From an uncultured archaeon (GTDB lineage: Archaea > Asgardarchaeota > Lokiarchaeia > Sigyniarchaeales > SOKP01), in the NCBI GenBank assembly GCA_964583985.1, contig CAZOYD010000092.1:1-11032 (forward strand): 11,032 nucleotides of DNA, in the 5' to 3' direction. Numbering within the stretch: the stretch's first letter is position 1; every line of letters starts with the position of its first letter. The position numbers were made by a program, and so were the translations under genes. Positions 1 through 10,913 of the stretch are shown here, piece by piece. The notes beneath the pieces were generated by a model. It did no database searches and was not told the origin of the DNA. It was given only the letters and a program-made list of their open reading frames with translations.

Positions 1-66
1 GTGTTGTTGGTATTGGTTTTTCTTCTATAGGTGTTGTTGGTATTGGTTTTTCTTCTACGGGTGTTG
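1..66. repeat. 30-bp coding tandem repeat (at least 2 copies, truncated by the window edge) encoding P(I/V)EEKPIPTT
   Basis: 1-30 gtgttgttggtattggtttttcttctatag and 31-60 gtgttgttggtattggtttttcttctacgg differ at 2 positions, followed by partial gtgttg. The unit is a multiple of 3 and in frame with the GTPase ORF. Confidence 0.95.
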
Positions 67-1129
67 GAGGAGTTGGTGGAGATTGGCTAGTTTTTTGAAG
101 GAGACCCTTTATTTTCTGAGCTTTTTCATAAAATTCCCTCCCTAATGAGTCATCACCTAATTCTATGCACAAATAACTAATTTTTTCAAATAAGAGAGCT
201 GCATTTTGAAAATCTGCATTTTCTAGTGATTTCGTAGCCTGTTCTATTAGTGTATCTCTCTCTAAAAGTGGCTTTAACAACGGTGAAATCTCAGCACTCA
301 TTTCTAAAATATCAGCAATAATTTGAATCATTTTATCTCTATTTTTAGCTTCTTTCGCAATCATGGAATAGGTTTTTAATCCTAAGATCTTCTCAATCTG
401 TTCCGGTTTCAAGGAAACGCTAAGATCTTGCTTATTTCCTATTACTGCTACATGAGCGTTTCCAGCTTGTTCTTTAATCAATTCTAAAAAAAATTTACTC
501 TTTTCAATATTTTCTAAAGAGGAATCCGTGATTAAGAGGACGGCATCACTTCCCTTTATGAAATTATTCCAAAGATAACTAAATTGTTCCTGTCCAGCAA
601 AATCCCATAAATGGAAATATAACTTTCCTATTTTAATTGTTGCAATATCACCTGTAATCGTAGGGACGTGTTGCATGGGTATCTCTTCAGCTTTAATTAA
701 TTTAGTGATAGTTGTTTTACCTACGCCAGAGAATCCAACAAGAGATATCTTCGGACGTAGATTTCTATGAATTGAATCAATGGTGGGATCAAAAACTTCA
801 AATGTTTTAGAATCATATTTATGGGCCAAGATGTCTTCAAATAAATTCAAAAATTCTTTTTTGCATTTGATTAATTCCTTCTTAATACTCTCGAAATTAT
901 CAGTAAGACCTGTGACGAAAAGAAATACTAGATTGAGATCCTTTTCTGTGATGTAGGACATTCGATATTTATAATAGTCATGATAATCGACTTTATTTCC
1001 TCCTTTACCTAAAGCCTCATTCAATAATTCTCCGATGATGGAATCAAACATGTCTTTCTTAATTGCTTTTCCAAAATGTCTGTAGTAAATGATTTCTCCT
1101 TCTTTTAAAATATAAACCTGTCGTAAAAT
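1..1129 (-). CDS. Multidomain small GTPase: N-terminal longin-like domain, Arf/Rab-like GTPase, MIT/TPR-like helical domain and Pro-rich repeat tail (3' end beyond the left window edge)
   Basis: Manual translation gives an open frame of 376 codons from ATT(1129) to the edge: (M)LRQVYILKEGEIIYYRHFGKA...YRMSYITEKDLNLVFLFVTGLTDNFESIKKELIKCKKEFLNLF (longin-like pattern). GTPase motifs: G1 GFSGVGKT (736-713), G2 PT, G3 WDFAGQ (607-590), G4 NKQD (436-425). These are followed by RDTLIEQATKSLENADFQNAALLFEKISYLCIELGDDSLGREFYEKAQKIKGLL and SPPTPPTPVEEKPIPTTPIEEKPIPTT. The GTPase call is strong; the longin and MIT/TPR calls are pattern-based. Confidence 0.93.
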   Translation of the reverse strand, partial: MLRQVYILKEGEIIYYRHFGKAIKKDMFDSIIGELLNEALGKGGNKVDYHDYYKYRMSYITEKDLNLVFLFVTGLTDNFESIKKELIKCKKEFLNLFEDILAHKYDSKTFEVFDPTIDSIHRNLRPKISLVGFSGVGKTTITKLIKAEEIPMQHVPTITGDIATIKIGKLYFHLWDFAGQEQFSYLWNNFIKGSDAVLLITDSSLENIEKSKFFLELIKEQAGNAHVAVIGNKQDLSVSLKPEQIEKILGLKTYSMIAKEAKNRDKMIQIIADILEMSAEISPLLKPLLERDTLIEQATKSLENADFQNAALLFEKISYLCIELGDDSLGREFYEKAQKIKGLLQKTSQSPPTPPTPVEEKPIPTTPIEEKPIPTT

Positions 1130-1135
1130 TATAGT

Positions 1136-1142
1136 TCACCCC
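1136..1142 (-). promoter_or_regulatory. Archaeal Shine-Dalgarno GGGGTGA upstream of the GTPase gene
   Basis: The minus strand reads ttGGGGTGAactataATTttacga, with 6 nt between the SD and ATT at 1129. Confidence 0.7.
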
Positions 1143-1174
1143 AATTTCGATAGTCTTGTATTTTCATTACAATA

Positions 1175-1669
1175 TTATAAGCTTGATATATAATTAACAA
1201 GATCCTTGATAATTGAATATTTTTGATCTTTAATTTTTGCTGTGGATAATGTCTCTTCCATGGTTTTAATCTCTTTAGAAAAATCAAATGTAGAAAATTC
1301 TTTAATTTCATATTCTTTTGATTCTTCACTCACTCTATCCAAAAAAAATTTAATGCTCGGCATAAATTTTGCTAAATTCATATCCAATCCCAACTTCGAG
1401 ATTAATATTAATTCTTCATTAAACGTAAATAAATAATTATATTTCTCTGCTTCAACAGCAAAAGAATTAATTTTATTTAGGTTTAGTTCCTTCGCAATAT
1501 CTTGAGAGTTCGATATTAAAGAAAGAATTTTATGCGGAATAATTTTACCTTGAGAAAACTCTTTTATTTTCGATGATAATACTATTCCAAAATTATTAGC
1601 AATAGCGCAATCTGAATTCAATTCTTTCTGTAATTGAGAGATTATTTCGTTGTAATTCGTCTTGTTCAT
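1175..1669 (-). CDS. Roadblock/LC7 (MglB/LAMTOR-like) domain protein with a C-terminal helical extension
   Basis: 164 aa. An N-terminal amphipathic helix (YNEIISQLQKEL), the CAIANNFGIVLSS hairpin, a helix ending AKELNL, strands INSFAVEAE-YNYLFTF-LILISK and a MNLAKF helix match the roadblock secondary-structure pattern. It lies 45 nt upstream of a small GTPase gene on the same strand. Confidence 0.7.
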   Translation of the reverse strand: MNKTNYNEIISQLQKELNSDCAIANNFGIVLSSKIKEFSQGKIIPHKILSLISNSQDIAKELNLNKINSFAVEAEKYNYLFTFNEELILISKLGLDMNLAKFMPSIKFFLDRVSEESKEYEIKEFSTFDFSKEIKTMEETLSTAKIKDQKYSIIKDLVNYISSL

Positions 1670-1772: not shown

Positions 1773-2558
1773 TTGAAAATATATAAAAATCATTTTTCAG
1801 AAAAAGAATCGGATCTCACAATTATCTCAGAATCGAAGAATGCTATCCTAAAAGCAAAACAAACATTTTTCTATCATCGAGAATTATTAGAAAAATTCGC
1901 TACAAAAAACCAAAATTTCTTAAAATCATTCAATCCAATAACTGTCTCATCTCCGTATGAGATAATTCAACTAATGATCAGATATTCAAAAATATGTAAT
2001 GTTGGACCCATGGCCACTGTAGCAGGAGCCTTGGCAGATCTAATGCTAAATGCAATGAAAGAGTCTGAGAAAAATTTTATTCCCGCAAGAGTAGCTTTAG
2101 TAGAAAATGGAGGGGAAATCGCAATTGACTCCGAGAAGTTGATGCGAATCGCTTTATATGCCGGTGAAAATAAACTTAATTTAAATATAGGGTTTTTGAT
2201 TGAAAAAAAAGATTGTCCCATAGGTATTGCCACGAGTTCCGCCACGGTAGGTCATGCCATCAGTTTAGGGCAAGCCGATGCCGTAACCATATTTGCAGAA
2301 AATGCAACTCTTGCTGATGGAGCTGCAACCCGAATCGCCAATTTAGTTAAAGGGGATGATGTTGAGAAGTCCATTAAAACTGCACTGGATGCAACTGAAG
2401 ATATACCCGGAATTAGAGCGGCTTTAATTAGTCGAGGAAATAAGGTTGGACAGATAGGGAATTTACCAAAGATCTTTAAAATTATTGGGAATAAGGATCA
2501 AATTCTAAAAGCTAAACTTGATACCATTCTTCCCGGAGATTATGAAGTTTTTAAATGA
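1773..2558 (+). CDS. UPF0280 family (ApbE-like superfamily) protein
   Basis: 261 aa, TTG start. Family motifs VGPMATVAGALAD, VENGGEIA, GIATSSATVGHAISLGQADAV and LADGAATRIAN. Confidence 0.9.
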   Translation: MKIYKNHFSEKESDLTIISESKNAILKAKQTFFYHRELLEKFATKNQNFLKSFNPITVSSPYEIIQLMIRYSKICNVGPMATVAGALADLMLNAMKESEKNFIPARVALVENGGEIAIDSEKLMRIALYAGENKLNLNIGFLIEKKDCPIGIATSSATVGHAISLGQADAVTIFAENATLADGAATRIANLVKGDDVEKSIKTALDATEDIPGIRAALISRGNKVGQIGNLPKIFKIIGNKDQILKAKLDTILPGDYEVFK

Positions 2559-4824
2559 CCCAATATAGAGGAGAATCATCTCCCGTAGAGCTTTTTGAAG
2601 AGAAAATTCGATTTAAGTAATTCATGTGATAATATTCTTCAACTTCCTCATCAGAAAGCTCGCTAAAAATCGACGAAGAAAAAGCATTGTAATAATGCTT
2701 TGATACAAGTAAATATACTGAAGTATTATACATCTTTTTTAAATTTGTTAAGACGTTTATTCCATTTTGGATGTGCAAGGATGGTTTTAAATAAGTGTCA
2801 TTTACCGTGATATATCTATTAACCACCGGTATCGACTCATTAATCTGAATGTTCACGTTCTGATATCCAAAAAAAATGAATGCTGGTGCCCACCCAAATT
2901 CAGAAATGATAATATTGTTTGTTGTACCATATTTTGAATAAGTATCAATTAAATTGGCGTCATTATTATCCAAACTCCAAATATTGACAGCATAATCTTC
3001 ATCAGTATAGGTTATAATTAATGATAATGTAATAATCAAGGTAAGCATTAATTTATTCTTTAATAGCTTGATTGTATGGGTTTTAATTAATTTATAGATA
3101 TACGCTGAAAACCCTATTGCAAAGATTGGAGAATTTAAATATAAGATTCGTGAAGCAAATGAATAGGAACCATACATCACGTCAAAAGCAACACCCGCTA
3201 ATAAGAGTGTCACTAAACCTATTCCCCAAAACCATAATGGTTTGCCTCTATTTTTGAATTGAAATGAAATCATTCCCCAAATACCAAATAAGATAAGAAT
3301 AACTAATTCAAATCCATAAATTAGATCCAACACGTTATAGTTGAAGAAAAGGGTATTCATTATCCCAAATAACAAGATAGCAATAAAAGATAAGGTAAAG
3401 ATTCCAGGGACAAGATACTTTTCTTCAATGATTTTTAAAATTTTGAATTTTTTCCCCTGTATTATTTGTTCATATTTACCCTTAGTGAATCCGACATTTT
3501 TTCGAATAAAATATAAGATACAACCAAGAAAAATGCCCGCTCCACCAATTAACATCAATATTATTTGGAAGGGAATGGTTGATAATGAATCGAATACTCT
3601 AAAATGCCCCGTACTGATGCCTTGAATGTATAAGATGAAAAACATCAGCAAGCACATGCATAATATTAAAAAATCAAATCCCCGGCGATAATCAATGATG
3701 AAATAAACCAAATAAACCCATAAAAATGATACAAGTAAGATCATTGCTATTAATGAGTGGGAGAATAAAGAACTTAAAAATACTAGAAGAATTATGGGAT
3801 ATATGACCTTAATATTACCCAATACTTGTTTTAAGGATGGAACTCTCTCTTTTACAAAGTCTTGAATCCTAGTATAGAGTAGGAAAAATATGAATAAACC
3901 TTGAATTAATACGATACTTGAAGGCCAAAATTGATACATCATGTTTGAAAAACCTAGCGAAGAAAAGATCAAGATAAAAACTCCAAACAATGCGAGGTTT
4001 TTGCTCCGAAATATCCTTTTCAACAATATATAAGCGATTAAGGCGGATATTGGAAATGTATAGAAGACAAAATACCTCGGGATTAGCATGATATTAATGC
4101 CAGAGAAATACTGAATTACTACACCAAATACGTGTATTCCATATGTTCCAAAATAATCATTTATCGGTAATGTATGAGTTATTGTTATATATTTGATGAT
4201 TGAAATATGCAACCATCCATCTGTTCCAACAAAAATATCTACTCGAGCCAAATCTAAAACACAAGTTAAAAACACGAATAGAATGAGATAAAAGGAATTA
4301 GATTTAAGAATTCTCTTTAAAACATTCAAGGGATTCAATTCAATATTTATCTCTTTTATAGATGTTTTATGGGTCCTACTGAAGAGCATGGGATCTGAGC
4401 TCTTAAAATCAATTATAAATATCACACATAATATAAGTAAAAATGAAATTGTCATTACTAAAAAGAAATATAGTGCAGTTAGAAGACAATTGGCATAATA
4501 ACCAATTATTCCACTCACGATATATAATGCCATGTTTGATATTATAGTAATTGCCAATTTTTCTATCAAAGTAAACCCAGAATTTCTGAATAATTTTAAT
4601 ATCAAGGGATATAATGGTAAGAATAAAATCGCGTTTATCATGCTAATATACACCATGACATTAAAAAAAAGTGATAGAATTACCAAATTTGAATCTTGAA
4701 TCATCTGATTGAAGCCTAAAATATGTAATAGAATAAAGCAAATCGTCATGAGAGACCAGAGAATTGAAAAGAAATGAAATCTAAGGCGAATGTATTGCAC
4801 ATACTTTAGGATATTAAATGGCAT
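2551..4824 (-). CDS. Multi-pass membrane protein, probable GT-C fold (lipid-phosphate-sugar-dependent) glycosyltransferase
   Basis: 757 aa with many hydrophobic segments. GTDGWLH...LP...YFGTYGIH follows a TM helix, resembling the D-x-x-x-H external loop 1 of GT-C enzymes. It has a soluble C-terminal domain and lies beside DPM1-like GT2 genes. Its stop overlaps the convergent UPF0280 gene by 8 bp. Confidence 0.65.
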   Translation of the reverse strand: MPFNILKYVQYIRLRFHFFSILWSLMTICFILLHILGFNQMIQDSNLVILSLFFNVMVYISMINAILFLPLYPLILKLFRNSGFTLIEKLAITIISNMALYIVSGIIGYYANCLLTALYFFLVMTISFLLILCVIFIIDFKSSDPMLFSRTHKTSIKEINIELNPLNVLKRILKSNSFYLILFVFLTCVLDLARVDIFVGTDGWLHISIIKYITITHTLPINDYFGTYGIHVFGVVIQYFSGINIMLIPRYFVFYTFPISALIAYILLKRIFRSKNLALFGVFILIFSSLGFSNMMYQFWPSSIVLIQGLFIFFLLYTRIQDFVKERVPSLKQVLGNIKVIYPIILLVFLSSLFSHSLIAMILLVSFLWVYLVYFIIDYRRGFDFLILCMCLLMFFILYIQGISTGHFRVFDSLSTIPFQIILMLIGGAGIFLGCILYFIRKNVGFTKGKYEQIIQGKKFKILKIIEEKYLVPGIFTLSFIAILLFGIMNTLFFNYNVLDLIYGFELVILILFGIWGMISFQFKNRGKPLWFWGIGLVTLLLAGVAFDVMYGSYSFASRILYLNSPIFAIGFSAYIYKLIKTHTIKLLKNKLMLTLIITLSLIITYTDEDYAVNIWSLDNNDANLIDTYSKYGTTNNIIISEFGWAPAFIFFGYQNVNIQINESIPVVNRYITVNDTYLKPSLHIQNGINVLTNLKKMYNTSVYLLVSKHYYNAFSSSIFSELSDEEVEEYYHMNYLNRIFSSKSSTGDDSPLYWVI

Positions 4825-4997
4825 CTTTTATCGCAGAACTTCCCATCTGGTTTAATTTAATATAATAATATTATTTTTGTAAATTATTAGTTTTCTTGTT
4901 ACAAAAGAAATCACGATACTAATAATAAAATCAAATAATTACCATACATTTTAATTCTCATGGAAATAAAGTAATCTAATTAGGAGATCAATACATC
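4825..4997. promoter_or_regulatory. Divergent AT-rich intergenic/promoter region, with SD AGGAGA (4982-4987) for the epimerase gene
   Basis: 173-nt gap between divergent ATGs, very AT-rich; taggagatcaatacatcATG. Confidence 0.5.
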
Positions 4998-5966
4998 ATG
5001 TTAAAAAACAAAAAAATATTAATTACTGGTGCTGGGGGTTTTATTGGCTCTCATCTTACAGACGAATTATTAAAACATGATAATTTTGTCGTGTTGATAG
5101 ATAATTTCAATGATTATTATTCTGGAAAAGAAAAACAACTTAATGATATAATCAAGAATTATAAATTACACGAAAATTTTGAATTATATAAAGATGATCT
5201 TCTTAAATCTTCCTTGTATGATCATATTGAAACGGATATCGAATACGTGTTTCATCTAGCCGCTCAAGCAGGAGTTAGATACTCTTTAGAGCATCCTTCT
5301 GAAGTTTCTCATAATAACATTATAAGTACTGTGAATCTTTTTGAATTCTCAAGAAAATTAGAGAATTTAAAAAAAGTGGTTTTTGCTTCTTCTTCCTCAG
5401 TCTATGGAAATCCAATGTACACTCCTGTAGATGAACAACATCCAAAAAATCCCATTTCACCTTATGCGGTTTCAAAATTAAGTGGAGAATTATATGCTGA
5501 GTTATATTACAGAGAATTTAACTTGCCAATTAATTCATTAAGGTTTTATACTGTGTATGGTCCTCGCGGTAGACCAGACATGGCGATTCGAAAATTTTTT
5601 GATTTGATTCTTCAAGGAAAAGAACTCATACTATATGGTGATGGAACTCAACGCCGAGACTTTACTTATATTTCTGATATTATCAGTGGTATAATTCTTG
5701 CTAGTGAGATTCAAAATATCAATGGAGAAGTCTTCAATCTTGGAAAGTCTGATCCAATTATTATTAATGATTTAGTTGATTTCATGTATGAAATTTCAAA
5801 AAAACCTAAAAAAGTTAGATATATCGAGAAACAAAGAGGAGATGTTGAAGTCACTCACTCAAATATAGAAAAAGCAAAAAGAAACCTCAATTATAATCCT
5901 CAAATTTCGATAAAACAAGGATTATTAAGACAATATAATTGGCAAGTCAAAAATAGTTTAAATTAA
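4998..5966 (+). CDS. NAD-dependent epimerase/dehydratase, UDP-glucuronate 4-epimerase-like extended SDR
   Basis: 322 aa. TGAGGFIG, HLAAQAGVRYS, ASSSSVYG, catalytic YAVSK and RFYTVYGPRGRPDMA. The AQAGVRYS and GRPDMA motifs are typical of the UDP-GlcA 4-epimerase subfamily. Confidence 0.88.
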   Translation: MLKNKKILITGAGGFIGSHLTDELLKHDNFVVLIDNFNDYYSGKEKQLNDIIKNYKLHENFELYKDDLLKSSLYDHIETDIEYVFHLAAQAGVRYSLEHPSEVSHNNIISTVNLFEFSRKLENLKKVVFASSSSVYGNPMYTPVDEQHPKNPISPYAVSKLSGELYAELYYREFNLPINSLRFYTVYGPRGRPDMAIRKFFDLILQGKELILYGDGTQRRDFTYISDIISGIILASEIQNINGEVFNLGKSDPIIINDLVDFMYEISKKPKKVRYIEKQRGDVEVTHSNIEKAKRNLNYNPQISIKQGLLRQYNWQVKNSLN

Positions 5967-6054
5967 CAAAATTTATAACAACAATTAACTATATATCTAA
6001 ATGCAGTAATGATGTTTAAGTGTAATTAATGGATTTATAAAAGGTGCTTAGCAT

Positions 6055-7029
6055 TTGACTATTTTAAGTTCAAGCGAAGACATAACAGCTGATTCGCTTC
6101 ACAAAAGTATTCTAAAAACCCCTCAAGATGATCACTTTCAATCTTTATATGATTTCATGGAGAAATTCATAAAGAGAAATGATCAAGTCATAATGTCCAT
6201 TATCTTACCGATGTATAATGAGGAAAAGACAATTAAAAACGTAATAGAAAGTCTTCCAGATAGTAAAAATATTGAAGTGATCGTTGTTAACGATAACTCA
6301 ACAGACAATAGTTTAAAAGAAATTGATAAGATCAAAAAGCATTTAAATTTAAAAATTGTAACTCATAAATTCAATAAAGGCTATGGATCAGCTATATTAA
6401 CAGGCATTAAGAATTCAAAAGGTGAAGTTATAGTCACCATGGATAGTGATGGTCAACATGATCCAAGAGATTTACTTACATTGGTTCGACCCATTTTTAC
6501 TAAAGAAGCCGATTACACCATAGGTTCCAGGTATTTAGGAACTTATTTTTACCAATTACCCGTTTCTACAAGGCTTGGTGAGCTGTTTGTTGAAAAGTTG
6601 TTGCAAATTTTTTTTGGCAAGAAGATTATGAACAATCAAAATGGGTTTAGAGCTTTCAATAGGAAAATTCTAACAATTTTTGAGAATGTAAGATATGATG
6701 GATATGCTTTTTGCACTGAACAAATTCTAAGAGCATCTATTGAGGGATACAAGATAAAAGAATGTCCCATTAAACTATATGATAGAAAATATGGCTCATC
6801 TCATGTCGTTCTATCAAAATTAGCAATAAATATCTTCTCTCTTTTTTTTAAATATCTTGTAAAAAAAATCCAGCTCACTGTAATCAAGAAAGACCGAAGT
6901 GGCACGTTGAATATCTATGAAAAAGCATTAAAAAAGAGTTCTGAATTAAAAGATCTCCGAATTAATAGAGAGTTAATTTATATCAATTCAAAATTCTTTA
7001 TCGAACATAGGTTTACGGCGCCTCCATAA
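6055..7029 (+). CDS. Glycosyltransferase family 2, DPM1-like (polyprenol-phosphate glycosyltransferase), paralog 1
   Basis: 324 aa. SIILPMYNEE, NDNSTD, NKGYG, DxD motif MDSDGQH, IGSRY, GFRAF and R..GSS. TTG start with AGGTG upstream (6042-6046); the exact start is uncertain. Confidence 0.9.
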   Translation: MTILSSSEDITADSLHKSILKTPQDDHFQSLYDFMEKFIKRNDQVIMSIILPMYNEEKTIKNVIESLPDSKNIEVIVVNDNSTDNSLKEIDKIKKHLNLKIVTHKFNKGYGSAILTGIKNSKGEVIVTMDSDGQHDPRDLLTLVRPIFTKEADYTIGSRYLGTYFYQLPVSTRLGELFVEKLLQIFFGKKIMNNQNGFRAFNRKILTIFENVRYDGYAFCTEQILRASIEGYKIKECPIKLYDRKYGSSHVVLSKLAINIFSLFFKYLVKKIQLTVIKKDRSGTLNIYEKALKKSSELKDLRINRELIYINSKFFIEHRFTAPP

Positions 7030-7040
7030 TTATTGAAGTG

Positions 7041-7059
7041 TTTTTTTCTTGGTTTTTTC
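7041..7059 (+). terminator. Possible archaeal oligo-T terminator
   Basis: tttttttcttggttttttc begins about 11 nt after the stop of the first GT2. Confidence 0.4.
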
Positions 7060-7154
7060 GCTAATGAATTAATTTTATTAGATTCGTGCAATTTATAATA
7101 CCAAGTTACTTTCATTTCTTTTAGTCTTGGAATGAGAACTATCGGAGTATTGAA

Positions 7155-8018
7155 TTGAACACATTGTCGCAGAAACATAATAATCATCAGAATCTAGGAA
7201 AAAATGAAATTAAAACTAATCACAGAGATTTAGGTTTTAAAGAATTAAATAATTACATAGATAAATTCAGTACATCGACAGATTCGGTTCTTATTTCAAT
7301 CATATTGCCAGTGTATAACGAAGAAAATACAATAGGGACTATTTTGCAAAATCTCCCAAATCACCCTTCTGTAGAAATCATTGTAATCGATGATAATTCC
7401 ACAGACACAAGTTTAAAAGAAATAGAGAAAGTAAGGAAGAATAGAAAGATAAAGGTGTTGCATCATAAGTTTAACAGGGGTTATGGAGCAACAATCATGA
7501 CTGGGTTTAAAAATGCTACAGGTCAAATTATAGTAACAATGGATAGTGACGGACAACATAGCCCAGATGATCTTTATCATTTGATAAAGCCCATTCTTGG
7601 TGGAAATTCTGATTTTACTATAGGATCCAGATACTTAGGATCTTACCATTACAGACTCCCCTTTTCGACACGATTTGGGGAATTATTTACCGAAAAATTG
7701 CTCCGTATTGTTTTTGGTGTTAACATTTTGAATAATCAAAATGGATTTCGAGCTTTTAAAAGCGAAATAATTCCTATTTTTAATGACATGCGATATTTTG
7801 GATATGCATTCTGCATTGAACAAATTCTAATTGCTACTTCTTTTGGATATCATATTAAAGAAGTTCCGATAAAAGTCTATGATAGAGAATTTGGTTCATC
7901 AAAAATCGTTTTGTGGAAATTAGCATTCGATATTTTATCAAGTATATTAATTTATGGCTTGAAAAACATTAAATGGGTACTCACACATAAAAGTGAGATA
8001 AGGAAACTGTTTATCTAA
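7155..8018 (+). CDS. Glycosyltransferase family 2, DPM1-like, paralog 2
   Basis: 287 aa. SIILPVYNEE, DDNSTD, NRGYG, MDSDGQH, IGSRY, GFRAF and REFGSSK. TTG start with GGAG at 7144-7147. Confidence 0.9.
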   Translation: MNTLSQKHNNHQNLGKNEIKTNHRDLGFKELNNYIDKFSTSTDSVLISIILPVYNEENTIGTILQNLPNHPSVEIIVIDDNSTDTSLKEIEKVRKNRKIKVLHHKFNRGYGATIMTGFKNATGQIIVTMDSDGQHSPDDLYHLIKPILGGNSDFTIGSRYLGSYHYRLPFSTRFGELFTEKLLRIVFGVNILNNQNGFRAFKSEIIPIFNDMRYFGYAFCIEQILIATSFGYHIKEVPIKVYDREFGSSKIVLWKLAFDILSSILIYGLKNIKWVLTHKSEIRKLFI

Positions 8019-8058
8019 CCAAATAATTGAAAAATTATGCATTTTTGTGTGAAGTGAT

Positions 8059-8898
8059 ATGGCTAAAAAAGCAAATAAAGGTACGATTGAATCCACGATG
8101 TTAGGTCCCTTATATGCAAGGGCCAAATATGGAGCAATTTATCCCGAAATTTTAAAGGATCCTCAAGCGGAGATTTTTCTCAAGCAGGTTTATGAAATGT
8201 ATCCGGATCAACATGAAGAATTTGCCATGCTGGAAAAATTTATGGATGAATTTGCAAGTTTAAATTTTTTGTATCGTGCGAGAAAATTCGATGATGAAAT
8301 TAGGAAATTCAAGTCTTATCATCCTTCCGCCACAATAATTAATCTCGGTTGTGGTTTAGATACTTCCGATTCGCGAATAGGAAATAAAAATCTGAAGTGG
8401 TTTCAAATAGATTTACCCGATGGTATCGCTTTTCGAGAAAAATTGATATCTCCAATCCCAAACTCTAAAAATATTGCAAAATCAATTTTTGACTATAGCT
8501 GGTTCGAGGATATTGAATTTGATGAAAAAACAGGGGTTTTAATACTTGCTGCAGGATTATTTAATTATTTTCAAGAAGAACAATTAAAAAATTTCTGCCA
8601 TAATTTAGCAACCCATTTTAAAGGAGCGACTCTTTTATTCGATATCCCCTCAGTACTTTTAAAAAAAATACTTAATCGAAAATATAAAAGATTAGGATAT
8701 CAAGGTGCAGACCACGAATTCGGTTTAGGTAACCCCAAAACGATACTGAAATGGTCTAATGCAATAAAGGCAATATCTTGTACTATCTTTTTTCAAGGAT
8801 TAGATTTGAATCCAAAATGGAATAAAAGAACTCGCTTTCTTATGAAATTATTTCGAACACTAAAATTTTATAAACTCGTGAAGGTGGAATTTAAATAA
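8059..8898 (+). CDS. Class I SAM-dependent methyltransferase, LCM / TcmP-like (carboxyl/O-methyltransferase) family
   Basis: 279 aa. TMLGPLYARA...DP.A, RARKFDDEI, IINLGCGLDT, WFQIDLPD...RE, SIFDYSW and AAGLFNYF. Confidence 0.88.
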   Translation: MAKKANKGTIESTMLGPLYARAKYGAIYPEILKDPQAEIFLKQVYEMYPDQHEEFAMLEKFMDEFASLNFLYRARKFDDEIRKFKSYHPSATIINLGCGLDTSDSRIGNKNLKWFQIDLPDGIAFREKLISPIPNSKNIAKSIFDYSWFEDIEFDEKTGVLILAAGLFNYFQEEQLKNFCHNLATHFKGATLLFDIPSVLLKKILNRKYKRLGYQGADHEFGLGNPKTILKWSNAIKAISCTIFFQGLDLNPKWNKRTRFLMKLFRTLKFYKLVKVEFK

Positions 8899-8935
8899 TA
8901 ATCAACAATCATTATTATAGGTAGATCATAATCTT

Positions 8936-10006
8936 ATGAAGAAAATTATTACTTGTATCGGGATTCGACCTGATATTATTCGATTATCTCAAATAATTAA
9001 GAAATTGGAAAATAATTTTAAAAATTTAATCGTAGATAGTGGGCAACATTATGATTACAATTTAAATAAAATATTTTATGAACAACTAGGTGTTCGACAT
9101 CCTGATTATAATTTAAATATAAAAAGTGGTACTCATGCCTCTCAAGTAGCTCGCTTAATGATTGAGTTTGAAAAAGTTCTAATGAAAGAATCACCCGAAT
9201 TCGTGATCGTTTTAGGTGATAATAATAGCAGTTTAGGGTTTGCATTGGCAACCGCCAAGTTGAATATTCCTCTCGTGCATATTGAATCAGGAATGCGTAG
9301 TAAAAATTGGTTCATGCCTGAAGAAAAAAATAGAAGAATTATTGACCATCTTGCAGATATGAATATATGCTATTTACCGGAGCATAAGGATAACCTCCTA
9401 AGGGAAGGATTAAATCCCAGACGATCCTGGGTGGTGGGTAATCCAATCATTGAGGTAGTTCAATCTATCAAACTCTCTTTTTCGCAAGAAACGCCTTTTT
9501 ATTTAGTAACATGTCATCGAGCAGAAAATATTGAAATAAAGCAAAACCTTGAAAAAATATTGCAATTCCTTGGGAAGCTTTACTCCCATTATAACACTGA
9601 AATTAAATTCATCTTAATGCCAAAAACAAAACTTATGATGGAAAAATATGAGTTACAGTTTCCAGAAGGGATCAATTCCATTCCTCCACAAGGATTTATA
9701 GAATTTTTGGGTATGGAAAAAGAAGCAGCTCTCGTTTTAACAGATAGTGGGACAGTGGTGGAAGAATGCGCTATATTGGGAACTCCTTGCCTAACTATTC
9801 GTGAATCTACAGAACGCGTTGATTTGATAGAGTTAGGAGTAAATACCTTAACTGGATTAGATGTCGAACAGATGTTAGACTCTGCCACATTAGCATTATC
9901 TAGAGAAATTGAACCCGTAAATCATTATGGGAAGAATATTGCAGAAAAAATTTGTAATATATTAATAGGCAATTCTCTTAAATTTCAAAAAAATGCTGAT
10001 AGATAA
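8936..10006 (+). CDS. wecB: Non-hydrolysing UDP-N-acetylglucosamine 2-epimerase family (WecB/WbjD/FnlC-like)
   Basis: 356 aa. GIRPDIIRL, SGQHYD, VLGD, HIESGMRS...MPEEKNRRIIDH, VGNPI, TCHRAEN, TDSGTVVEE and RESTER. The IIRL, NRRIIDH and DSGT variants lean toward the WbjD/FnlC subgroup. Confidence 0.9.
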   Translation: MKKIITCIGIRPDIIRLSQIIKKLENNFKNLIVDSGQHYDYNLNKIFYEQLGVRHPDYNLNIKSGTHASQVARLMIEFEKVLMKESPEFVIVLGDNNSSLGFALATAKLNIPLVHIESGMRSKNWFMPEEKNRRIIDHLADMNICYLPEHKDNLLREGLNPRRSWVVGNPIIEVVQSIKLSFSQETPFYLVTCHRAENIEIKQNLEKILQFLGKLYSHYNTEIKFILMPKTKLMMEKYELQFPEGINSIPPQGFIEFLGMEKEAALVLTDSGTVVEECAILGTPCLTIRESTERVDLIELGVNTLTGLDVEQMLDSATLALSREIEPVNHYGKNIAEKICNILIGNSLKFQKNADR

Positions 10007-10028
10007 AGAGAATTAGTAATAACTTAGA

Positions 10029-10913
10029 TTAGGCCATTTCATATTCTTTCAATCTTAGAATAGCCGTTTTCATATCCGTCTTTTGTATTAGTTTTTCAAG
10101 TAAGTGATAATTTGTGCTCAGCGAGCGATCTACACTCTGATCTGGAATGTTTACTCGATTGATCTGCAAATTTTTATTAAAAATGTCATTGAAAATGTTC
10201 ATCAATTCGAATTTATTAACTGTAGGATTTTGAATGAAATGCTGAATCGGAGATTCTTGAACCAACTCATCGTATTTATCAAGAGTTATAATCTTCTCAC
10301 AAATTTGAGCAAATTGAAGCGTGGTAACTCCATTCCAACTATGATGTTCATAACCTCCTATTGTACTACCTACTTCTTGATTCAAAAACCATTCATATAA
10401 GAAGGATTTCTGTTCTTTTGGTTCAGGACCAATAATAGAACAACGAATTAATAAAGCTGAACCATCGAAAACTTCTCCAAGACTTTTTGATTTACCATAC
10501 ACGTCTAATGGATCATGAGGATCATCTTCAGTGTACAATCCTTTCTTTCCCGAATATACACAATCCGTGGCAATTTGGATGACCTTTATGTTATTTTTTC
10601 TAGTATATTCAGCTAATTCCCAAGGGAATTTGGAATTTATGGCAATTGCCCTTTTTACTCCGGCAGGATCATCATCTTTAGAAAAAGGTTTCGTGATTCC
10701 GATACAATTAATAATATACTCTATCTTTAGATTAAGAAATTGGGCTGATTCGAGTTGGGAAATATCATACGCATCAAACAACATGATTTTTTCCCGTTTA
10801 TACTTTGGATTTCTTACTGTCCCATAAACATTCAGATCCGGATTTTTTGATAAATAATCAAATACCATTGAACCTAACATCCCACTCACGCCAAGAACTA
10901 AAACATTCTTCAT
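10029..10913 (-). CDS. RmlD-like NDP-4-keto-6-deoxysugar reductase (dTDP-4-dehydrorhamnose reductase family)
   Basis: 294 aa. VLGVSGMLG, INCIG, ATDCVYSG..G.YTEDD...P.DVYGKSKSLGE and RCSIIGPE. Strong SD GGAGG at 10925-10921. Confidence 0.9.
   Translation of the reverse strand: MKNVLVLGVSGMLGSMVFDYLSKNPDLNVYGTVRNPKYKREKIMLFDAYDISQLESAQFLNLKIEYIINCIGITKPFSKDDDPAGVKRAIAINSKFPWELAEYTRKNNIKVIQIATDCVYSGKKGLYTEDDPHDPLDVYGKSKSLGEVFDGSALLIRCSIIGPEPKEQKSFLYEWFLNQEVGSTIGGYEHHSWNGVTTLQFAQICEKIITLDKYDELVQESPIQHFIQNPTVNKFELMNIFNDIFNKNLQINRVNIPDQSVDRSLSTNYHLLEKLIQKTDMKTAILRLKEYEMA

Follow-up and report, generated by a model that had tools for sequence, protein, structure and literature searches.

A conserved roadblock and longin-GTPase gene pair in Lokiarchaeia: a candidate two-gene switch whose GTPase gene probably begins with AUU

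Which regulator serves which GTPase cannot be told for the Asgard archaea, whose genomes encode dozens of small GTPases along with roadblock and longin proteins. Operon analysis was listed as an open question by Dey et al. (2016), and genome layout proved of little help in matching regulators to GTPases in the study of Tran et al. (2024; PMC10933270). A candidate pair lies at the left end of contig CAZOYD010000092.1 (C92) of an uncultured archaeon of the order Sigyniarchaeales, class Lokiarchaeia (assembly GCA_964583985.1), where a gene for a divergent roadblock/LC7-fold protein, P0002, directly precedes, on the minus strand, the gene for a longin-GTPase fusion protein, P0001. The window analyzed here is the entire contig of 11,032 nucleotides (nt); the genome comprises 3.8 Mb with 31.7% G+C, and the nearest protein relatives carry the label Promethearchaeota or Lokiarchaeota. 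We favor, with moderate confidence, the reading that the two genes form a small-GTPase switch module, probably co-transcribed and conserved in one order of Lokiarchaeia, in which the roadblock protein sets the nucleotide state of the GTPase.

The P0002 gene (1178..1669, minus strand) begins with an ATG at 1669, is closed by a TAA at 1177-1175, and encodes 164 amino acids (aa). An AlphaFold2 (AF2) model built with 24 family members, with a predicted local distance difference test (pLDDT) value of 84, consists of a core of residues 1-120 and two additional C-terminal helices. The secondary structure elements of the core follow the order α-β-β-α-β-β-β-α, with helices at residues 6-17, 46-61 and 99-119 and strands at 20-25, 29-33, 69-73, 77-83 and 87-94. 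The best among the listed Foldseek matches in the PDB were MK-D1 Roadblock3 (9jue), a Thor roadblock protein (7f8m), a second MK-D1 protein (7yh1), MglB, dynein LC7 and LAMTOR, with E values from 2e-5 to 5e-4. No Pfam family was matched at E <=0.1, so that the Robl_LC7 model was not passed, and no NCBIfam model was matched either. The sequence profile of the 24 family members (A2) matched the solved MK-D1 roadblock structure 7yh1 with an E value of 1.3e-5 (28.3 bits). Because of the Foldseek matches and this profile match, we conclude that P0002 is a genuine, though divergent, homologue of roadblock proteins and is overlooked by standard models, which agrees with the roadblock-like character first assigned to it. 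The gene is present in a single copy in the genome, and its family is small (38 representatives among 1.84 billion proteins, all of them unfused), properties that fit those of a dedicated partner.

On the minus strand, the frame of P0001 stays open for 378 codons, from position 1135 until the contig runs out at base 2; counted from an ATT at 1129, it contains 376 codons. The initial annotation had described a roadblock-like gene lying 45 nt upstream of an open frame of at least 376 codons, with an N-terminal domain of about 125 aa of the longin fold and with intact G1 to G4 motifs. The coordinates and counts were exact, and the two domain assignments are borne out by the structure and motif searches that follow.

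Residues 4-125 of P0001 (761..1126, minus strand) constitute the longin domain, as seen in the AF2 model and by VIA-align. The modeled order is β-β-α-β-β-β-α-α, with strands at residues 6-11, 14-20, 50-54, 57-64 and 69-76 and helices at 27-43, 81-99 and 109-125. A Foldseek search with the whole GTPase model returned G-domain matches only, and the longin fold emerged only from VIA-align, a wide, all-against-representatives search in which the longin-type matches all lay over model residues 1-128. The top longin match was the VAMP7 longin domain (4afi_B; Z 14.6, root mean square deviation 2.9, 118 residues aligned), and further matches were to synbindin (2zmv; Z 14.0), Sec22 (3egd_C; Z 13.8), AP2 mu/sigma (Z 12.2) and sedlin (Z 12.0). 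P0001 itself had no Pfam match over its first 125 residues. A relative from another Asgard family (L118, ~35% identical) passed the Pfam model Fuz_longin_1, which describes the Fuz/Mon1 longin (27.2 bits against a cut-off of 26.1), and another, L119, matched the Pfam model Longin at 18.3 bits, below threshold. A conserved arginine finger within the longin domain was considered and was not supported, the arginine of the sequence YYRHFGK being replaced by lysine in distant homologues.

The longin domain is followed by an Arf-like small GTPase domain (residues 128-278; 302..754, minus strand) that was recognized by Pfam, by Foldseek and by its motifs, and that the AF2 model places at residues 129-276. 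The motifs G1 (GFSGVGKT, 713-736), G3 (DFAGQ, 590-604) and G4 (NKQD, 425-436) can be read directly from the minus-strand sequence and do not vary among 58 homologues. On the same strand, switch I is represented by PTIT at ~653-664, and this segment, together with the 15-residue inter-switch that precedes WD, matches what we take to be the Arf1 pattern. The Pfam model Arf scored 78.3 bits over residues 126-259 (cut-off 22.3; E 6.5e-22), followed by Roc (63), Ras (56), Gtr1_RagA (31.1; cut-off 22) and SRPRB (20.8, below its cut-off of 25). The best Foldseek matches of the G domain were Arl1, Arl3, Arf and Rab. Unlike Arf proper, P0001 has neither an N-terminal amphipathic helix nor a myristoylated Gly2, and its N-terminus is instead the 125-aa longin domain, which starts with a β strand.

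The order of the two domains brings to mind the signal recognition particle receptor, in which a longin-fold domain is likewise paired with an Arf-like GTPase and the SRX domain of SRα clamps the switch regions of GTP-bound SRβ. One could therefore envision that the fused longin of P0001 clamps the switch regions of its own G domain in cis, and that the roadblock protein is an unrelated neighbor or an accessory. The longin-then-Arf-like order does mirror the SRX-SRβ pairing, and SRβ (2fh5_B) was aligned to the G domain with a Z of 12.7, next to the weak SRPRB match given above. However, that match falls below the cut-off, and higher scores go to Rab, Arf and Rho chains. The best matches of the longin domain are SNARE and TRAPP longins, with no SRX chain among the matches listed. 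P0001 also differs from SRX/SRβ in that the two domains are fused in cis, in that it has no N-terminal membrane anchor or hydrophobic segment, and in that there is no SRP-receptor context. Because this explanation would also leave the conserved roadblock gene unaccounted for, we consider it very unlikely, and we retain the view that the roadblock protein is the regulatory partner of the GTPase.

Three helices (residues 288-305, 309-325 and 329-350 in the AF2 model) follow the G domain and form a TPR-like unit (residues 288-350; 86..274, minus strand). A below-threshold match to TPR_8 was found for this unit in 16 of the 28 homologues and to MIT in one of the 28 (E 0.063). It had no significant PDB sequence match (the nearest was calpain-7, E 1.5), and the fold searches barely probed this part of the model. 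Since the profile matches are all below threshold and mostly to TPR_8, identification of the unit as an MIT domain is not supported. The start of a proline-rich, disordered tail occupies 1..85 (minus strand), including two 30-nt repeat units at ~1-60.

The remainder of the tail is encoded on another contig of the assembly. The initial annotation had suggested looking to the left of the window for the missing C-terminus, and contig C61 supplies it: its end (G000 C61:21645-21701; L031 9944-10000) carries the same 57 nt as the left end of the window, the rest of the tail lies at L031 8931-9998 (minus strand), and the next gene is that for aspartate kinase. The 57-nt overlap between C61 and C92 sits within the tandem 30-nt repeat that codes for PIEEKPIPTT (window 1-60). 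This repeat is the site at which the assembly broke; C61 and C92 were joined there into one gene, in which the number of repeat copies is approximate. The joined P0001 is 713 aa long when read from the ATT and is colinear with a 712-aa orthologue in the same genus (L002).

Within the joined protein, residues 351-640 (~290 aa) are disordered and contain 20% proline. Homologue alignments identified a conserved motif in the tail, GLxLNPEDFM[VI]KQRPKT..VPKDA..KLKTSP, and a conserved C-terminal coiled coil with ..LDFDMKELTGEIT... The four parts proposed at the outset (longin, GTPase, helical unit and proline-rich tail) were thus all found, by AF2 and through the join to C61; the count of four was too low, given the conserved short motif and the C-terminal coiled coil. 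Over 1,000 homologues were found; full-length ones are 610-660 aa long, are 70-94% identical over the first 330 residues, and carry database names such as 'ADP-ribosylation factor-like protein' or 'GTP-binding protein'. Two candidate identities for the C-terminal region were set aside. A CdvA-like coiled coil scored below threshold in the homologue P0100 (23.9 against 30 bits) and was also listed for P0103, but was absent from P0001; a SHOCT-like C-terminus was represented by one weak match (E 0.011).

How translation of P0001 begins bears on why the gene was overlooked. The spacer between the two genes (45 nt; 1130..1174, minus strand) shows no run of T residues and contains the Shine-Dalgarno sequence GGGGTGA (1142-1136), the TGA of which is an in-frame stop two codons ahead of the start. 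The ATT at 1127..1129, 6 nt after GGTGA, is the probable initiation codon, homologues beginning M-LRQV[YF]I at its position. In a set of 79 orthologous loci, the codon there is ATT in 50, ATA in 20, ATC in 4 and ATG in 5, so that 74 of the 79 have ATT, ATA or ATC, and an upstream in-frame canonical start is absent in 76 of the 79. GGTG occurs at a fixed spacing in 52 of these loci and AGGT in ~21 more. In orthologues further removed, the place of the ATT is taken by ATG, GTG or TTG. Downstream of the ATT, conservation is at the protein level, with synonymous changes, and the stretch is for that reason taken to be translated. The first ATG in the P0001 frame, at 1051, is 26 codons in, and its use would remove strands β1-β2. 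The GTG inside the Shine-Dalgarno site was considered as a start and rejected, being out of frame. The initial annotation had pointed out that the GTPase was missed by the open reading frame (ORF) track, and two causes can be given: no ATG, GTG or TTG is found at the true N-terminus, and the gene runs off the contig. The spacer also holds an upstream ORF of 12 codons that starts with ATG (MKIQDYRNWGEL; window 1129-1167, minus strand). Its TAA shares one base with the ATT start (TAATT), and it is not obviously conserved elsewhere.

As a genome-wide control, we collected all sites at which GGTGA is followed by 6 nt, a codon, and then at least 150 open codons. Among the 61 sites, the codon was ATG in 19, ATT in 12, ATA in 4 and ATC in 4, ATT thus occurring four-fold above a background of 5%. 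In addition, three of the genes with such a site and a non-AUG start, encoding TFB-like, TrmB-like and Ras-like proteins (G000 C45:4802, C52:8361 and C5:51845; L121-L123), have Pfam domains that begin at residues 2-15, and their first canonical start is 28-38 codons in. On the strength of the ATT enrichment and of these three genes, in which Pfam domains precede the first canonical start, initiation at AUU and AUC looks like a habit of the lineage and not an oddity of a single gene.

The pairing of the two genes, which the initial annotation had proposed to survey across Asgard genomes, is conserved well beyond the genus. A P0002 homologue lies directly upstream of the GTPase gene, on the same strand, at 26 of the 29 loci in 40 related genomes, and at 74 of the 77 testable loci in a set of ~80 species, with spacers of ~12-53 nt. 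Of the three loci that depart from this, two carry the GTPase gene in tandem duplicate, in one case with what is left of a roadblock gene between the duplicates, and the third contains masked DNA. The long form of the GTPase was present in all 39 sampled genomes of the family, and only a short longin-GTPase of ~285 aa was found outside the order. In other families of the order the pair persists, with 28-32% identity for P0002 and 58-61% for the GTPase, at loci where the genes that flank it in the window are missing or rearranged. The tandemly duplicated genes for the long form, each pair in a different species, lie at L094 910-4878 and L112 1914-5887, with the roadblock fragment of the latter at 3828-3959.

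Alternatively, the adjacency might reflect inherited synteny without any functional coupling, and the roadblock protein might serve others among the dozens of candidate GTPase genes of the genome. The neighbors of the pair, namely a divergent 261-aa gene, a gene for a 757-aa membrane protein and the aspartate kinase gene, are indeed syntenic as well (61-73 of 80 loci), and Tran et al. (2024) see no general operon logic for Asgard GTPases. This explanation does not sit well with the distant loci at which the pair survives and the other neighbors are lost (L019-L021, L024, L025 and L027), nor with the finding that the two genes are always on the same strand and directly adjoining. A Shine-Dalgarno sequence precedes the second gene and none is visible before the ATG of the first, an arrangement that fits an operon, and even a roadblock remnant accompanies a tandem GTPase duplicate. 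We therefore give little credence to synteny alone and continue to prefer a functional switch module.

Several observations weigh against that preference. Within the family the whole neighborhood is syntenic, so that the 74 loci are for the most part non-independent and the pairing argument rests on the fewer, distant ones, where the spacer is longer (~28 to >150 nt) and co-transcription is less certain. A fused roadblock-GTPase form, which would have given Rosetta-stone support, was not found among the 1.84 billion representatives. The inter-domain geometry of the P0001 model is uncertain, with a predicted template modeling score of 0.50 and a pLDDT below 50 for switch I. Finally, Tran et al. 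(2024; PMC10933270) report for MK-D1 that GTPase genes do not, as a rule, share operons with genes for roadblock or longin proteins; the P0002/P0001 pair would be an exception that is not listed in that study.

How might the two proteins work together? Roadblock and longin proteins generally dock small GTPases on a platform, and longin/roadblock complexes control Rab, Rag and Arf proteins. By the switch-module reading, a P0002 homodimer, or P0002 together with the fused longin domain, would provide a flat platform of β sheet and helices on which the Arf-like G domain docks, and the docked platform would set the nucleotide state of the GTPase. The closest bacterial counterpart is MglA/MglB of Myxococcus and Thermus, in which a roadblock-fold protein is also encoded beside a small GTPase gene. 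P0002 matched MglB structures (1j3w, 3t1x, 6hjm and 6h5b) with Foldseek E values of ~7e-5 to 1e-4, and both proteins have C-terminal helical extensions. The two systems differ in that P0002 is ~18% identical to MglB and in that P0001 is Arf-like, with a canonical DxxGQ motif, a longin domain of its own and a long tail; MglA carries a variant G3 motif. By analogy with the action of MglB on MglA, our leading guess is that P0002 would stimulate GTP hydrolysis in the manner of a GTPase-activating protein (GAP), the alternatives being that it acts as a guanine nucleotide exchange factor (GEF) or purely as a scaffold. Partner binding, oligomerization or tethering might fall to the TPR-like unit together with the linear motif and the coiled coil, and a weak AUU start behind a strong Shine-Dalgarno sequence would hold production of the GTPase beneath that of the roadblock protein.

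A scaffold role is at the center of a different explanation, which is modeled on Rag and Ragulator. P0002 and the fused longin domain would form a heterodimer equivalent to the dimer made by the C-terminal roadblock domains of RagA and RagC, and this would position the G domain and act neither as GAP nor as GEF. The Gtr1_RagA score of P0001 is above its cut-off, LAMTOR and Rag C-terminal domains are among the Foldseek matches of P0002, and the 'Rag-like' structural class of Tran et al. (2024) takes in such longin-GTPases. A paralogous cluster on contig C41 adds to this. It comprises (L032 3578-6235, minus strand) a Rag/Gtr1-like GTPase gene, a gene for a short longin-GTPase-TPR protein and a gene for a Ras-like GTPase of 184 aa. 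The short protein is the closest paralogue of P0001 (351 aa, 57% identical), and it is paired with the Rag/Gtr1-like GTPase (310 aa, the length of RagA; best PDB match RagA, 1.3e-9), whose gene is directly upstream and overlaps the start of the paralogue by 23 nt; the gene order recurs in L022. The C41 arrangement speaks for the switch-module reading as well, as a parallel case of a roadblock set beside a longin, the candidate roadblock there being the C-terminal domain of the Rag-like GTPase.

P0001 itself, however, lacks the C-terminal roadblock domain that defines the Rag proteins, its G domain being followed by three helices and then disorder, and Arf is by far its best Pfam match. To our knowledge, no roadblock-longin heterodimer occurs among eukaryotic complexes, which also counts against this explanation. 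More broadly, Rag with Ragulator (LAMTOR), GATOR1, FLCN-FNIP and C9orf72-SMCR8 all pair roadblock or longin platforms with small GTPases, as here; the present pair differs from them in the missing roadblock domain of P0001, in having no DENN module, and in that no conserved arginine finger is evident. We regard the Rag-type arrangement as unlikely. Returning to a roadblock protein that sets the nucleotide state of its GTPase, one can extend this proposal further, although we doubt the extended form: a mixed platform of P0002 and longin would regulate the G domain within the same complex and would represent a minimal, operon-encoded archaeal forerunner of Ragulator-Rag, TRAPP and the longin GAPs, its stoichiometry set by the conserved AUU start, which would itself be part of a wider and undescribed use of AUU, AUC and AUA for initiation in the Shine-Dalgarno-led genes of the lineage.

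The class to which P0001 belongs is already known, as had been said of longin-GTPase fusions from the start. According to PMC4917890, Klinger et al. (2016) described five longin domains in fusion with Arf-like GTPases of Lokiarchaeota. The architectures longin-GTPase, GTPase-roadblock and longin-GTPase-roadblock were mapped in MK-D1 by Tran et al. (2024; PMC10933270), and longin N-termini are mentioned among Asgard Arfs by Zhu et al. (2025; PMC11914678). The Lokiarchaeial fusions come from the group of organisms to which P0001 belongs and have its core, an N-terminal longin domain joined to a G domain of Arf-like (structurally 'Rag-like') type. Our literature search, in which most subscription papers lay outside coverage, found no description of the operon, of a dedicated roadblock partner, of the TPR-like unit or coiled coil, of the ~290-aa proline-rich tail with its conserved motif, of the non-AUG start of this gene, or of AUU starts in Asgard archaea.

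The locus therefore offers a conserved, single-copy pair, encoded in cis, of a GTPase and its candidate regulator that is open to direct expression and assay. It also reveals that one or more roadblock families escape standard profiles, and that P0001 and other genes are shortened by gene callers owing to AUU, AUC and AUA starts. Catalogues of eukaryote-like proteins in Asgard archaea may be biased because of both the missed family and the truncation at start codons.

In other Asgard families (L113-L117 and L120), a short longin-GTPase of ~283 aa is flanked upstream by a 360-aa protein and downstream by a proline-rich coiled-coil protein of ~110 aa. The conserved 360-aa protein (MPLGMIVVRWDNRLG...) has weak winged-helix matches, and homology between it and P0002 was rejected (hhalign probability 0.2%). 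Between the ~110-aa protein and the coiled coil at the C-terminus of the long form, hhalign gave a probability of 23.5% (E 8.6e-4), a likeness that is suggestive only; because of it, the tail of the long form may have arisen by gene fusion.

The remainder of the window is occupied by genes of other kinds. The 261-aa gene, at 1773-2558 on the plus strand and thus divergent from the pair, matched the NCBIfam PRK04334 'hypothetical protein' models below cut-off (213 against 262 bits) and is the neighbor found syntenic at 73 of 80 loci. A glycosylation-type cluster extends from 2551 to 10913. It contains the gene for the 757-aa protein, which is a polytopic membrane protein without a Pfam match, and genes for a NAD-dependent epimerase/dehydratase, two GT2 glycosyltransferases, an LCM-type methyltransferase, a UDP-GlcNAc 2-epimerase and an RmlD-like reductase.

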